Shown: piece by piece, positions 1 through 5,226 of the stretch
Layout: each line of letters starts with the position of its first letter
Position numbering within the stretch: the stretch's first letter is position 1
Assembly (NCBI RefSeq): GCF_058153355.1
Contig: NZ_CM177019.1
Length of the DNA: 64,000 nt
Strand: one strand, 5' to 3'
Position numbers and translations under genes: made by a program
Notes under the pieces: model-generated
Databases searched by the model: none
Seen by the model: only the letters and a program-made list of their open reading frames with translations
What the model was told of the DNA's origin: nothing

Positions 1-318
1 ATCCGCCCATTTTGCGTTATCGCGCAGGGTAAAAGTCCAGATACGGTTGTCATTACTTTTCCACTGAGTCGCAACGCCGGGGACAATCTCCCCTTTCTCG
101 TTCTGATTCACCAGTCCTTCAAACAGATCGCGAATGACCTGAATCTCCGGCAGGCCCACGGCTTTAGCGGGATCCAGCGACGCAGGCTCATCTTTAATGT
201 GGCGCACCAGCTCCTGCTTCTCTGCCAGTACTGTGCCGCTCGGAACTTCTGCAGCATACGAAAGAGAAATGCTGCTGACCAACAGCGCACAACACGTGAC
301 TGAAACAGAGTGCTTCAT
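1..318 (-). CDS. mppA: Periplasmic murein tripeptide-binding protein MppA, N-terminal part only (gene runs off the window start)
   Basis: Minus-strand translation from ATG at 316-318 reads MKHSVSVTCCALLVSSISLSYAAEVPSGTVLAEKQELVRHIKDEPASLDPAKA... (signal peptide plus OppA/MppA-type N-terminus) with no stop before position 1; absent from the ORF track because it is truncated. Confidence 0.8.
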   Translation of the reverse strand, partial: MKHSVSVTCCALLVSSISLSYAAEVPSGTVLAEKQELVRHIKDEPASLDPAKAVGLPEIQVIRDLFEGLVNQNEKGEIVPGVATQWKSNDNRIWTFTLRDNAKWAD

Positions 319-375
319 AAGTTTCCCTCTAACCGACATTAAAATTGATGCGTAATTATTTGTTTCGCCTTAAAG

Positions 376-410
376 AAATGCAAACAACTTCCATCAAAAA
401 AGTGACAAAG
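376..410. repeat. Copy A of an imperfect ~35-bp direct repeat (aaatgcaaacaacttccatcaaaaaagtgacaaag), in the mppA upstream region
   Basis: Aligns with 4372-4408 (aaatacaaacaacttccggcaaaaaagtgatacaag) with about 30 of 35 positions identical, same orientation. Confidence 0.6.
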
Positions 411-654
411 GAAGCATCAAATGTTTTAAGTATCAATATATCAAATCAGATTTAGTGTAAATAATAGTCTCCAAAATGCGGTAAAGCACATAGAACTCCG
501 AACACTACGTTCGGGCTTCGCACGTTCAAACCCGTTTTCGGTATCATAATCAGCATCTGTCGCCATTGTACGAAGAATAAAAAATAACCAAAACGTTGAA
601 AGGAACTGAGAATACGTTAAGAGAAGAATTAAATTAATGTATCAGCAAGTAGTG

Positions 655-1554
655 CTAAACAGCACCTTTATACTTCAGCCTATCTATAAATAATGAGAAT
701 GCCGAGCCAGCATGTCGACGGTGTGGATAGTACAGGTGATAACCGGGTAAATCTGGTGTGAATTTATCCAAAACACGTATCAGTTTTTTTTCTTTAATAG
801 CCCGCTCAACCTGATCATAAGGTAGATACGCCAATCCATGCCCATCAATTGCAGCATCAATGATCAGGTCTATCGTATTCAGTAAAAGCTGACCTTCCAT
901 GCGAACACGAACTTCACGTCCACCGCGTATTAATCTCCAGCGATTTGCTGTACCCGATGTGGGAAGATACAAATTAATTGCCTGATGATCTATTAATTGT
1001 GACACTGACGTTGGAGCACTTCGACGAGAAAAATAATCCGGTGAGCCAACAATAGCCATTGGTATATCTGGCCCGATTCGAATGGCGATCATATCTTTAT
1101 CCATCTCCCCACCCAGACGGACGCCTGCATCAAAACGTTCAGAAACGACATCGGTCAAACCATAATCAATGGTAAGCTGGATATCAATTTCAGGATGCGA
1201 TTTCAGGAATGTGCGCATAGCTGGTAACAATATCGTTTTTGCTGCATGTTCTACAGTAGTAATACGTATTGTCCCGGATGGGCGGTTCTGCAGATCGCTC
1301 AGGGATGTCAGGGCAGAATCTATGTCATGCAACATAGGGCCAAGAACAGACAAAAGATGCTCGCCCGCTTCAGTGGGTACAACGCTGCGCGTGGTTCGCG
1401 TCAGAAGCCGCAATCCCAATCGTTCTTCTATACGGCGCACTATCTGGCTTAAAGCTGACTGCGCCATGCTCAGGCGGGCTGCTGCGCGAGTGAAGCTACG
1501 CTCCTCTGCAACGACGACAAACGCCATCAGATCAGCGATTTCTTCACGCTTCAT
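655..1554 (-). CDS. ycjZ: LysR-family transcriptional regulator
   Basis: 299-aa ORF with N-terminal winged-HTH (MKREEIADLMAFVVVAEERSFTRAAARLSMAQSALSQ) and LysR substrate-binding-type C-terminus; divergent from the hydrolase genes as in E. coli ycjZ/ycjY. Confidence 0.9.
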   Translation of the reverse strand: MKREEIADLMAFVVVAEERSFTRAAARLSMAQSALSQIVRRIEERLGLRLLTRTTRSVVPTEAGEHLLSVLGPMLHDIDSALTSLSDLQNRPSGTIRITTVEHAAKTILLPAMRTFLKSHPEIDIQLTIDYGLTDVVSERFDAGVRLGGEMDKDMIAIRIGPDIPMAIVGSPDYFSRRSAPTSVSQLIDHQAINLYLPTSGTANRWRLIRGGREVRVRMEGQLLLNTIDLIIDAAIDGHGLAYLPYDQVERAIKEKKLIRVLDKFTPDLPGYHLYYPHRRHAGSAFSLFIDRLKYKGAV

Positions 1555-1679
1555 TCAGTATCTCCATACAATCTATTAATCATTTAAATGATAGGTCTAA
1601 TCATAATTTAGGGTCTAATCAACTTAATGATCAATATCTATAGTGATATCACCAACCGTCAAAACGAACCGACAACTCC

Positions 1680-2612
1680 ATGAGGAACGGAATGATGAAT
1701 AATAAAGTCAGCTTCACTAACAGCAATAATCCAACCATCTCTTTGTCTGCAGTGATCTATTTCCCTCCAAAATTTGATGAAACCCGTCAGTATCCGGCAA
1801 TTGTGGTATCTCACCCAGGTGGGGGCGTTAAAGAGCAAACGGCCGGAACCTATGCCGAAAAACTGGCGGAAAAGGGATTTGTCACTATTGCTTATGACGC
1901 ATCTTATCAAGGTGAAAGCGGCGGCGAGCCGCGTCAGTTAGAAAACCCATACATTCGTACTGAAGACGTCAGTGCCGTGATTGATTACCTGACAACGCTT
2001 TCTTATGTCGACAATACCCGAATTGGTGCGATGGGAATTTGTGCCGGTGCAGGATATACAGCCAATGCTGCAATTCAGGATCGCCGCATCAAGGCCATCG
2101 CTACCGTTAGTGCGGTCAATATTGGTTCGATGTTCCGTAATGGTTGGGAAAACAATGTGAAATCTATTGATGCCCTACCATACGTTGACGCGGGTTCAAA
2201 CGCCCGAACCAGCGATATTAGCAGCGGAGAATACGCCACTATGCCACTGGCACCAATGAAGGAGTCCGATGCGCCGAACGAAGAACTGCGTCAGGCCTGG
2301 GAGTATTACCACACCCCTCGCGCGCAGTATCCAACAGCACCGGGTTACGCTACTTTGCGCAGCCTTAACCAGATTATTACCTATGATGCTTACCATATGG
2401 CGGAAGTGTACCTGACTCAGCCGATACAGATTGTGGCGGGCAGCCAGGCAGGGAGCAAATGGATGAGTGACGACCTGTACGATCGAGCATCAAGCCAGGA
2501 TAAACGCTATCACATTGTTGAAGGCGCAAACCATATGGATCTTTATGACGGCAAAGTCTATGTGGCTGAATCAATTTCAGTATTAGCTCCGTTCTTTGAG
2601 GAAACTCTGTAA
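1680..2612 (+). CDS. Alpha/beta-hydrolase (dienelactone-hydrolase-like), ycjY-family, copy 1
   Basis: 310-aa ORF; paralogous to the next gene (shared FPPKFDE..QYPAI..AYDAS.QGESGGEPR..RIGxxGxCxGxGY blocks). True start may be one of the ATGs at 1692-1697 (AGGAA upstream). Stop TAA overlaps the next ATG (taATG at 2610-2614). Confidence 0.8.
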   Translation: MRNGMMNNKVSFTNSNNPTISLSAVIYFPPKFDETRQYPAIVVSHPGGGVKEQTAGTYAEKLAEKGFVTIAYDASYQGESGGEPRQLENPYIRTEDVSAVIDYLTTLSYVDNTRIGAMGICAGAGYTANAAIQDRRIKAIATVSAVNIGSMFRNGWENNVKSIDALPYVDAGSNARTSDISSGEYATMPLAPMKESDAPNEELRQAWEYYHTPRAQYPTAPGYATLRSLNQIITYDAYHMAEVYLTQPIQIVAGSQAGSKWMSDDLYDRASSQDKRYHIVEGANHMDLYDGKVYVAESISVLAPFFEETL

Positions 2613-3551
2613 TGAAACATATTCAAATCCGTAATAGTGATATGGCCTGGCATATTGCTGCCAATATTCAGTTTCCACCAAATTTTGATGAGTCAAAACA
2701 GTATCCGGCGATTATCAGCGTCCATCCTTTTGGCAGTTGTAAGGAGCAGACGTCTGGCAATATCTATGGCAAGGCATTGGCTGAAAAAGGCTATGTCGTT
2801 CTCGCTTATGACGCCAGTTTCCAGGGAGAATCTGGTGGGGAGCCTCGTTGGATAGAAGATCCGACACAGCGCGTAGAGGATATTAGCCGTGTTATCGATT
2901 ATGCAGTAACTCTGCCATATGTTGATGCTGAACGCATTGGCGTGCTGGGTGTGTGTGTGGGGGGGGGGGGGTGGCTATGCCATTAATGCCGCGCTGACAG
3001 AAAAACGAATTAAAGCTGTAGTGAGTATTACGGGTGTTAATATCGGGCGTCTTTTTCGGGAAGGTTTCAGCAATTACGATCCGATTGGCGCATTGAATGC
3101 AATGGCGTCGCAACGAACCAAAGAGGCTCGTGGTGGAGAATTACAGATCAACGAATTACTTCCCGCCAGCCTGGATGCAGCAAAAGCCCATGGACTGACC
3201 GAACGCGATGTTTATGAAGCAACTGACTACTATAAAACACCACGCGGGCAACAACCGGGAGGTGCGACAAAAATGTTGTTCTCACATGCACAGAAAACGC
3301 TGGCCTGGGATGCCTTCGCATTTACTGAAGTGTTACTGACTCAGCCGGTGATGGTAGTAGTTGGTGAAAAAGTCGGTGCCTTCGGTGCTTATCGTGATGG
3401 ACTGGAAGTCTATGGCCGGGCGATGGTTTCGCAGGATCGTCAGTTAGTTTCGTTACCCGATTTCTCACATTATGAACTGTATGACAAACCGGAAGCAGTT
3501 CAGGAGGCGCTGGAAAAAGTTATTCCTTTTTTCAACACCCATCTGGGATAA
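2612..3551 (+). pseudogene. Alpha/beta-hydrolase, ycjY-family, copy 2, interrupted by a +1 frameshift in a 13-G homopolymer (2959-2971)
   Basis: ORF track splits it into 2612..2986 (ends ...GVCVGGGGWLCH*) and 2919..3551 (reads ...WVCVWGGGGGYAINAAL...). Removing one G gives a continuous ~312-aa frame, GVCVGGGGGYAINAALTEKRIK, collinear with copy 1. Confidence 0.75.
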
Positions 3552-3556
3552 GTTTC

Positions 3557-4207
3557 ATGAGAAATATTATGAAAAAAGTACTCATTCTTGGTGCTGGCGG
3601 TCAGATAGCCCGCCATGTGATTAATCAACTGGCAGATAAACAAACCATTAAACAAACTTTATTTGCTCGTCAGCCAGCAAAAATACACAAACCCTATCCA
3701 ACTAATAGCCAGATTATTATGGGGGATGTACTGAATCATGCAGCACTGAAGCAGGCCATGCAGGGACAGGATATTGTGTATGCCAACCTTACGGGGGAAG
3801 ATTTAGATATTCAGGCAAATTCAGTGATCGCTGCGATGAAAGCCTGTGATGTTAAACGTCTGATCTTTGTTCTTTCCCTCGGCATTTATGATGAAGTTCC
3901 AGGAAAATTTGGCGAATGGAATAATGCAGTTATTGGTGAGCCCCTAAAACCATTCCGCAGGGCTGCGGATGCAATTGAGGCTTCTGGACTGGAATATACA
4001 ATTCTTCGCCCTGCCTGGCTGACTGATGAAGATATTATTGATTATGAGCTTACCTCACGCAATGAACCATTCAAAGGTACGATCGTATCACGTAAGAGTG
4101 TCGCAGCATTAATCACAGATATCATCGATAAACCTGAGAAACACATTGGTGAGAATATAGGCATCAATCAACCCGGGACTGATGGTGATAAGCCCTTCTT
4201 CATGTAA
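3557..4207 (+). CDS. NAD(P)-binding Rossmann-fold protein (NmrA/SDR-like); probably the intact form of the locus annotated ymjC in K-12
   Basis: 216-aa ORF with N-terminal KKVLILGAGGQIARHV glycine-rich dinucleotide-binding motif; position between ycjY and mpaA. Confidence 0.7.
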   Translation: MRNIMKKVLILGAGGQIARHVINQLADKQTIKQTLFARQPAKIHKPYPTNSQIIMGDVLNHAALKQAMQGQDIVYANLTGEDLDIQANSVIAAMKACDVKRLIFVLSLGIYDEVPGKFGEWNNAVIGEPLKPFRRAADAIEASGLEYTILRPAWLTDEDIIDYELTSRNEPFKGTIVSRKSVAALITDIIDKPEKHIGENIGINQPGTDGDKPFFM

Positions 4208-4225
4208 ATCAATTATATAGCTACC

Positions 4226-4257
4226 ATCGTACTGTACTATGTGCAGTACGATTTATT
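4226..4257 (+). terminator. Hairpin (atcgtactg / cagtacgat) followed by ttatt
   Basis: 9-bp inverted repeat with 9-nt loop starting 19 bp after the stop at 4207, followed by a T-rich run. Confidence 0.55.
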
Positions 4258-4371
4258 AAACTTATTAAGGTGAACTGATCAATCAGATGCGATTAACATG
4301 TGTAGAACCAGTAAGAATAAAATACGCCATGTATATAACATTACGACAATTCTAATATCTGCACATCAATG

Positions 4372-4408
4372 AAAATACAAACAACTTCCGGCAAAAAAGT
4401 GATACAAG
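4372..4408. repeat. Copy B of the imperfect ~35-bp direct repeat, upstream of mpaA
   Basis: See 376-410. Confidence 0.6.
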
Positions 4409-4497
4409 ATCGATAACATAGCGTTGAAGAAAAGGATTTGATAATCCGCAAAATTTGCACAACACTGCCTGTAATACTTCCTGAACCAGAGACGATT

Positions 4498-5226
4498 ATG
4501 ACCGTAACCCGCCCACGCGCCGAACGCGGCGCATTTCCGCCCGGAACAGAACATTACGGACGTTCATTATTGGGCGCGCCGTTAATCTGGTTTCCGGCCC
4601 CTGCAGCCAGTCGCGAAAGTGGTTTGATTCTGGCTGGCACTCACGGTGATGAAAACTCTTCGGTCGTCACGCTCTCCTGTGCTCTGCGGACTTTGACACC
4701 GTCTTTGCGCCGCCATCATGTAGTGCTGTGTGTGAATCCTGACGGCTGCCAGTTAGGGTTACGGGCCAATGCTAATGGTGTGGATTTAAACAGAAACTTT
4801 CCGGCGGCGAACTGGAAGGAGGGTGAAACGGTTTATCGCTGGAACAGCGCGGCTGAAGAACGTGATGTCGTATTACTGACAGGTGACAAACCTGGCTCCG
4901 AACCTGAAACCCAGGCGCTGTGCCAGCTTATACACCGCATTCAACCTGCCTGGGTGGTCTCATTCCACGATCCACTGGCCTGTATTGAAGATCCCAGACA
5001 CAGCGAATTAGGCGAATGGCTGGCCCAGGCGTTTGGATTGCCTCTGGTAACCAGCGTCGGTTATGAAACTCCTGGCTCTTTCGGCAGTTGGTGTGCGGAT
5101 CTCAACCTGCATTGCATCACCGCAGAGTTTCCACCTATCTCCTCCGACGAAGCCAGCGAAAAATACCTCTTTGCGATGGCTAACTTGCTGCGCTGGCATC
5201 CTAAAGATGCAATGCGCCCGTCGTGA
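4498..5226 (+). CDS. mpaA: Murein peptide amidase A (gamma-D-Glu-Dap amidase, zinc carboxypeptidase family)
   Basis: ORF 4438..5226; internal start MTVTRPRAERGAFPPGTEHYGRS... gives 242 aa matching E. coli MpaA; HGDE zinc-binding motif present. Confidence 0.9.
   Translation: MTVTRPRAERGAFPPGTEHYGRSLLGAPLIWFPAPAASRESGLILAGTHGDENSSVVTLSCALRTLTPSLRRHHVVLCVNPDGCQLGLRANANGVDLNRNFPAANWKEGETVYRWNSAAEERDVVLLTGDKPGSEPETQALCQLIHRIQPAWVVSFHDPLACIEDPRHSELGEWLAQAFGLPLVTSVGYETPGSFGSWCADLNLHCITAEFPPISSDEASEKYLFAMANLLRWHPKDAMRPS

Follow-up and report, generated by a model that had tools for sequence, protein, structure and literature searches.

In this study, we asked why two nearly identical sequences in the same orientation bracket a 4-kb gene block in Escherichia coli, and whether they are traces of an insertion or a regulatory element shared by the genes on either side. 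The window that was analysed is a stretch of 64,000 nucleotides from contig NZ_CM177019.1 (RefSeq assembly GCF_058153355.1), in which the block separates mppA, which codes for the murein tripeptide binding protein (5′ end at 1..318, minus strand, with the start codon at 316-318 according to the RefSeq annotation of the near-identical strain N3), from mpaA, which codes for the murein tripeptide amidase (4498..5226, plus strand). We refer to the repeat copy on the mppA side as R1 (376..412, plus strand; core 376-405, tail 406-412) and to the copy on the mpaA side as R2 (4373..4409, plus strand; core 4373-4402, tail 4403-4409). The results presented here make it very likely that R1 and R2 are a duplicated piece of the mppA-mpaA control region, which came to lie around a horizontally acquired four-gene cassette in E. 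coli, and that this cassette was later lost precisely by recombination in some strains.

In a repeat search of the window, R1 and R2 were recovered as an ungapped 37-nt direct repeat with 84% identity. Direct repeats around the block had been noticed in the original prediction, which was made from the sequence alone, and they are indeed present in two copies; the start of the first copy at 376 stands, while the second copy starts at 4373 and not, as had been proposed, at 4372. The best-preserved part is a 30-bp core, AAAT[G/A]CAAACAACTTCC[AT/GG]CAAAAAAGTGA, which is followed by a weaker 7-bp tail, and a comparison of the spacer sequences beyond the repeat edges on both sides revealed no similarity past the repeat. 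The earlier count of about 30 identical positions out of 35 slightly understates the usual similarity, as the AT/GG dinucleotide (AT at 393-394 in R1) is the sole difference between the 30-bp cores in most E. coli strains. Among the genomes compared, the A at 4377 (repeat position 5) is confined to the window; K-12, N3, JEB8, GPEC859 and the O145:H28 genome all have a G at this position of R2. A 25-nt pattern from the core occurs exactly twice in the 64-kb window and was not found in any of 100 dinucleotide-preserving shuffles. The 37-mer was also located in 5,418 complete genomes of E. coli, where it occupies 10,654 places in total with a median of two for each genome; R1/R2 is a locus-specific pair rather than a dispersed repeat family. 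The idea that the similarity is due to chance, or that the copies belong to a dispersed family of small repeats such as REP, ERIC or MITE, can practically be dismissed: it draws only on their AT-rich, low-complexity appearance, whereas the shuffles, the two places per genome and the exact hybrid single copies at empty sites, described below, all speak against it.

The origin of the repeat becomes apparent from genomes in which mppA and mpaA are direct neighbours; a search for such genomes had been suggested, and they proved to be abundant. A scan for MpaA with one genome per species yielded 80 loci, of which 78 carry both genes on the locus. In 75 of these 78 loci of other Enterobacteriaceae species, including E. 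albertii, E. whittamii and other non-coli Escherichia as well as Citrobacter, Enterobacter, Klebsiella and Kluyvera, the two genes are adjacent and divergent with a gap of 138-316 bp, mostly about 182-190 bp, and alignment of these spacers showed one shared motif copy in each. The same arrangement, with a 182-bp spacer, is seen in about 190 of the 5,418 E. coli genomes. The spacer of these empty sites is composed of the left flank of the window, one repeat and the right flank, joined with exact junctions, and the distance of R1 to the mppA start codon is that of the single copy in the empty-site genomes. The adjacent gene pairs and the single motif copy in their spacers support the first of two readings offered previously, according to which the block is an insertion that split an ancestral divergent pair, with the repeats as what is left of a duplicated target.

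The suggested gene content of the block is borne out by Pfam matches (LysR regulator, alpha/beta hydrolase and NAD(P)H-binding protein) and by the genes that RefSeq annotates in close relatives (pgrR, an SDR oxidoreductase gene and two genes for alpha/beta hydrolases). It consists of the LysR-type regulator gene pgrR, also named ycjZ (655..1554, minus strand), the first alpha/beta hydrolase gene ycjY (1692..2612, plus strand), a second alpha/beta hydrolase paralog (2612..3551, plus strand), which in the window is frameshifted with its open reading frame (ORF) split into 2612-2986 and 2919-3551, and a gene for an NAD(P)H-binding SDR-type oxidoreductase (3569..4207, plus strand), which is the full-length form of the K-12 pseudogene ymjC. 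Among E. coli strains the block is found in the full form of the window, in a form lacking the second hydrolase, in a K-12 form and in rarer forms; in K-12, the ymjD and ymjC pseudogenes are what remains of the second hydrolase (about 57 bp) and of the SDR gene (139 bp). Conjugative plasmids of Klebsiella aerogenes, K. pneumoniae and K. variicola carry the same four genes in the same order, with about 78.7% DNA identity and in unrelated surroundings, and the LysR gene together with both hydrolases recurs in the chromosome of Pluralibacter gergoviae as well as on plasmids of Rhizobium and Agrobacterium. YcjY has 81-85% amino acid identity to alphaproteobacterial proteins, with Rhizobium, Agrobacterium, Sphingobium, Mesorhizobium and Burkholderia among the genera matched, and such conservation across distant bacteria points to a recent and wide horizontal spread of the hydrolase. 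No R-like sequence was found with up to 11 mismatches near cassette copies elsewhere (Klebsiella plasmids, Pluralibacter and a JGI genome; loci L083, L084, L092 and L093), and the left spacer of the block (413..654, with a hairpin at 498-514) is not similar to the cassette copies on plasmids. As the cassette resides on plasmids in unrelated contexts while relatives carry adjacent genes with a single motif copy, the block was brought in by insertion and both repeats represent duplicated host DNA. We found no earlier description of this repeat pair.

The duplicated DNA is part of an old control region. When the 73 single-copy spacers were aligned and projected onto the E. coli empty site, five blocks were nearly invariant across the 73 species, namely GTAATTATTTGTTTC, GAAATGCAAA, AAAnTTGAT, GAAACTATTTGATTA and TTTTGCACAACACTG, and the duplicated piece, which corresponds to spacer positions 58-94, spans the second and third of them. 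A sigma-70 promoter predicted for mppA (355..383, minus strand) has its -35 hexamer TTGCAT inside R1 (383-378), a 17-nt spacer and the -10 hexamer AATAAT (360-355). The -35 and -10 regions are located in the first two nearly invariant blocks and the interval is free of gaps in all species aligned; the consensus scan gives the site one base out of register (TTTGCA-18-AATAAT), and from scan and conservation together we infer an mppA promoter with its -35 in R1. On the other side, the mpaA-side remainder of the old spacer (4410..4497, plus strand) contains the conserved blocks GAAAnnATTTGATnA and TTTTGCACAACACTG, and TTGATA (4438-4443), a 17-nt spacer and AACACT (4461-4466) form a possible candidate promoter for mpaA, which is absent from the consensus-scan list. 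A sigma-54 promoter in the reverse complement of R1 was considered and rejected by inspection, as GG and GC lie one base too close together and the GC is missing from R2, and a search by eye for CRP or FNR half-sites in the repeat gave no convincing match.

Taken together, these data suggest the following course of events. Ancestrally, mppA and mpaA formed a divergent pair with one 182-bp control region, in which a single motif copy served both genes. The 4-kb cassette, consisting of pgrR, the two alpha/beta hydrolase genes and the SDR oxidoreductase gene, was inserted in this spacer in the E. coli lineage, and in the course of the insertion a host stretch of 30-37 bp from the middle of the spacer was duplicated, with one copy left at each junction. 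R1 would then supply the predicted mppA -35 hexamer and the T-tract upstream of it, and R2 would represent the gene-distal end of the control region upstream of mpaA. Each gene thereby keeps its native upstream DNA, at the native distance and in the native orientation, up to the far edge of the duplicated piece; the stretch retained measures 94 bp in front of mppA and 125 bp in front of mpaA. The gene-facing side of each copy has retained the ancestral bases, and as short direct homologies R1 and R2 still recombine with each other, which results in precise deletion of the cassette and occasionally in conversion of one copy.

The second reading in the original prediction was a shared regulatory element that serves both murein-peptide genes. 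In this case both copies would be maintained as cis-acting sites, for instance one transcription-factor site for each gene, through which mppA and mpaA are co-regulated. Part of this proposal holds, as the duplicated DNA belongs to an old shared control region that is conserved across genera; it is regulatory DNA with two inner blocks conserved across the 73 enterobacterial species, and each copy is found at the native distance from its own gene. However, before the insertion one copy was used from both sides, rather than an independent motif for each gene, and outgroups manage with a single copy for both genes, indicating that two are not needed. The copies also run in the same chromosomal direction and hence, as the genes are divergent, are oriented differently towards mppA than towards mpaA, and substitutions are found in the gene-distal half of each copy, namely the AT in R1 and, in R2, the window's A at 4377, which falls within the predicted and here unused mppA -35. 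In addition, genomic SELEX (systematic evolution of ligands by exponential enrichment) for PgrR revealed binding to the ycjY/ycjZ spacer and does not list the upstream region of mppA or mpaA (PMC5934670). We therefore regard co-regulation as a very unlikely reason for the presence of two copies.

R2 is identical to the single ancestral copy in K-12, N3, JEB8 and GPEC859, and in the window it differs from this copy only by the A at 4377. The R1 core differs from the ancestral copy just by AT in place of GG, and since Escherichia outgroups have GG or GT at this dinucleotide but never AT, the AT in R1 is derived. To look for recombination between the copies, we used as a query the 90-base junction expected from a crossover to the right of the AT, that is R1 through the AT followed by the R2 tail and the right flank. 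It was found in 10 E. coli genomes with an exact match over all 90 bases and in four more with one mismatch, giving 14 empty sites with a hybrid junction, and the adjacency of mppA and mpaA was confirmed in all three of the 14 genomes that were checked. In one of the strains, CP131_Sichuan, the left flank shows 100% identity to K-12 over 2,556 bp and the right flank 99.85% over 2,036 bp, and a K-12-specific G that lies within a few bases of the right edge of the repeat is shared as well; the strain therefore carries a K-12-type allele from which the cassette has been deleted precisely between R1 and R2. Strains SCU-172 and PT62 have another base at the position of this G and more divergent flanks, and on these grounds at least two independent deletions have probably occurred. 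Recombination has also left a trace where the cassette is still present: in O145:H28 strain 16003, R2 carries the AT, and 41 genomes match the 90-bp query for this R2-AT variant with at least 99% identity. A transfer of sequence from R1 to R2 (conversion) explains the O145:H28 genome best.

Exact junctions and precise excision would also be in agreement with R1 and R2 being the attL and attR sites of a site-specific islet, that is of an element with its own copy of the 30-37-bp host sequence (attP), which a tyrosine or serine recombinase would have integrated and from which the integrase gene would since have disappeared. Direct repeats of a few tens of base pairs around foreign DNA, with the function of the target restored on both sides, are what is expected of integrase-mediated islands. 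Moreover, in the K-12-type block a deletion (3708-4372) ends at most 1 bp from the left edge of R2, which could hint at breakage at the repeat boundary. However, there is no integrase or excisionase gene in or adjoining the block, and the plasmid and chromosomal copies of the cassette lack R-like ends. The crossover points may also be variable: in the AT-type hybrids the exchange took place within core positions 20-30, the right-hand 11 bp, while the GG-type empty sites (about 178 genomes, including sequence type 648 (ST648) strains, with the common MppA protein WP_000683029.1), if they are deletions, would require a crossover within core positions 1-17, the left-hand 17 bp, and variable points of exchange would fit better with homology-driven recombination than with a fixed site-specific exchange. 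An origin of the repeats as attachment sites is thus an unlikely explanation in our view.

A duplicated stretch of host control DNA therefore remains the explanation that we favour, although several points weigh against it. The block and its surroundings contain no transposase, integrase or inverted-repeat end, as judged from ORFs, RefSeq annotation, Pfam and the repeat search, and a duplication of 30-37 bp exceeds the target duplications that are usual for typical transposases. The length of the duplication is itself uncertain between 30 and 37 bp, as the 7-bp tail fits only the spacer version of non-coli Escherichia: the R1 tail, CAAAGGA, matches that version (TAAAGGA, strain E69) at 6 of 7 positions and the E. 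coli version (TACAAGA) at 4 of 7. Judged from these alignments, 30 bp are certain and 37 bp are probable. In the literature that we searched, no mapped transcription start was found for mppA or mpaA, and the promoter assignments are based on scan and conservation. Finally, the GG-type single copy equals the ancestral sequence as well as the product of a left-hand crossover, so that the roughly 178 GG-type empty sites of ST648 and its relatives may be ancestral rather than deletions, and mpaA is too polymorphic and mosaic in E. coli for flank divergence to date these sites.

As to how the duplication arose, candidate routes are an att-type integration after which the integrase was lost, the entry of plasmid DNA by illegitimate or homology-facilitated integration, and repair of a staggered break. 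It is also conceivable, though quite improbable, that the cassette entered by an as yet undescribed, integrase-free mechanism which copies a 30-37-bp host promoter to both sides of the insert and for which the repeat boundary is a preferred site of breakage. The sole hint for a breakage-prone boundary is the end of the common internal deletion of the K-12 type at the left edge of R2; if true, entry of this kind would provide a promoter-preserving and reversible way of lodging plasmid cassettes between divergent genes. The deletion end itself (ccaactaata/AAATGC, in comparison with L087 6690-6710) shows almost no microhomology, and its position may reflect coincidence, selection to preserve all of the DNA upstream of mpaA, or a boundary that is prone to breakage.

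The insertion of the cassette also has implications for PgrR, which in K-12 was described as a regulator with its own regulon (Shimada, Yamazaki and Ishihama 2013, Genes Cells 18:123, as cited in PMC5493296 and PMC5934670). In published work, ycjY, ymjD, ymjC and mpaA are described as one operon controlled by PgrR, which binds in the ycjY/ycjZ spacer (PMC5934670; PMC3946193); the repeats are not mentioned in the published PgrR work that we found. In the window, a terminator-like hairpin is present 3′ of the SDR gene (4226..4258, plus strand), with a perfect 12-bp stem followed by UUUAUU and a z-score of -2.8 relative to shuffled sequences, and the K-12-type deletion takes out this hairpin. As the deletion removed the hairpin and joined the cassette operon to mpaA, PgrR control of mpaA is perhaps a side effect, which may be confined to the K-12-type deletion and may not be what the regulator originally did. 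PgrR, which has been named as a regulator of peptidoglycan recycling, came as the LysR regulator of a hydrolase/oxidoreductase cassette that elsewhere has no link to cell-wall genes, and this changes the way in which the protein is to be read.

Three of the 78 loci deviate from direct adjacency of mppA and mpaA. In Escherichia sp. E1V33 (locus L005, 4374-7000), a K-12-like version of the block lies between the two genes; the flanks are 86-92% identical to the window, whereas pgrR and ycjY are 97-98% identical to E. coli, and the K-12-type deletions are the same. Vertical inheritance of the block was rejected for this strain, as pgrR and ycjY are far closer to E. coli than the flanks are and the K-12-type deletions are shared; divergent flanks, a 97-98% identical cassette and common deletions indicate that the block was imported from a K-12-like E. 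coli. As R1 of E1V33 has kept the native T and GG, the left exchange point of this transfer probably lay inside the repeat. The other two exceptions are Salmonella enterica subsp. arizonae and subsp. diarizonae, which have three ORFs of 191, 275 and 270 amino acids between mppA and mpaA (L021, 4449-6677; L024, 4374-6602). By their sizes and sequences we read these as a putative cytolethal distending toxin operon, cdtABC. With a cdtABC-like insert and the cassette in one and the same spacer, this spacer has accepted foreign DNA at least twice.

Several further observations were made at this locus. In E. coli MFDS1019527 (L002, 2624-4069), which has a spacer of the single-copy type, just the first 69 bp of mppA are left beside the spacer, and beyond this remnant there are phage-type genes, ninB among them, and a gene for a tyrosine integrase, which suggests that a prophage inserted in mppA. 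The mpaA gene is highly polymorphic, with differences between the window and K-12 at 22 of 729 positions and at up to 37 positions between E. coli strains, while the first 318 bp of mppA differ among E. coli strains at only 1-4 positions. At its 3′ end mpaA is convergent with ycjG, with an overlap of 26 bp (5201-5226), and the pair is listed as a convergent transcriptional overlap (excludon) in an E. coli survey (PMC12288877). Within the block, the frameshift of the second hydrolase lies in a GT/poly-G tract (2945-2975, with the expanded part read as 2957-2971), where the window has seven extra bases, an extra GT and more G residues; the gene of N3, with G8, stays in frame, that of O145:H28 strain 16003, with G9, carries a frameshift according to its annotation, and the Klebsiella plasmid copy reads GGCGGCGGT at this position and has no homopolymer. 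The expansion is due either to slippage-prone pseudogenization or to a sequencing artefact. In some strains the PGAP annotation (RefSeq) places a 75-bp pseudogene fragment of the 'epoxyqueuosine reductase QueH' in the left spacer (about 482-556 on the minus strand in converted window coordinates), the translation of which gave no hit in Pfam. A search against Rfam returned no family at its gathering score; the sole match was RAGATH-10 at 1100-1204 inside pgrR (24.2 versus 41.2 bits), outside both repeats.

Our results clarify the history of the mppA-mpaA-pgrR locus, which in itself is of modest interest. The genes for murein tripeptide uptake (mppA) and for the amidase acting on this peptide (mpaA) were originally a divergent pair with one control region, and it is E. 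coli that is the exception. Furthermore, the locus provides a natural and well-sampled case of deletion and conversion between 30-bp repeats that are 2.4-4 kb apart in wild E. coli.

The kind of feature described here is well understood, as R1/R2 is a junction duplication around a horizontally acquired islet that later became a substrate for deletion, and it can be compared with several known systems. Like other islets with target-site or junction duplications, the block has host-derived direct repeats at both junctions and a single copy in insert-free relatives, and the insert is foreign and elsewhere plasmid-borne. Here, however, the duplication is 30-37 bp long and comes without a mobility gene or terminal inverted repeat, and the transposase gene and terminal inverted repeats by which a transposon or insertion sequence is recognized are both missing from the block; the duplicated DNA is a predicted promoter region, so that both flanking genes would stay expressed. 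With integrase-mediated islands the locus has in common direct repeats of a few tens of base pairs, a target regenerated on both sides and precise loss of the island; it differs from them in that no integrase was found, the cassette copies examined have no attP-like copy and the crossover point is perhaps not fixed. The cdtABC islet of Salmonella arizonae and diarizonae is likewise a foreign insert in the mppA-mpaA spacer, but it has no flanking duplication and the mppA-proximal part of the spacer has been replaced and not preserved. The PgrR regulon of K-12 comprises the same genes with pgrR divergent from ycjY; here, pgrR is a passenger of the inserted cassette, and the undeleted window retains between the SDR gene and mpaA the hairpin that K-12 has lost. 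The locus also agrees with deletion between short direct repeats by short-homology recombination or replication slippage: a segment of 4 kb (2.4 kb in the K-12-type) was lost precisely together with one repeat, the crossover fell within 11-17 bp of identity, and the deletions are found with at least two right-flank haplotypes, so that in this respect there is nothing unusual about the locus.

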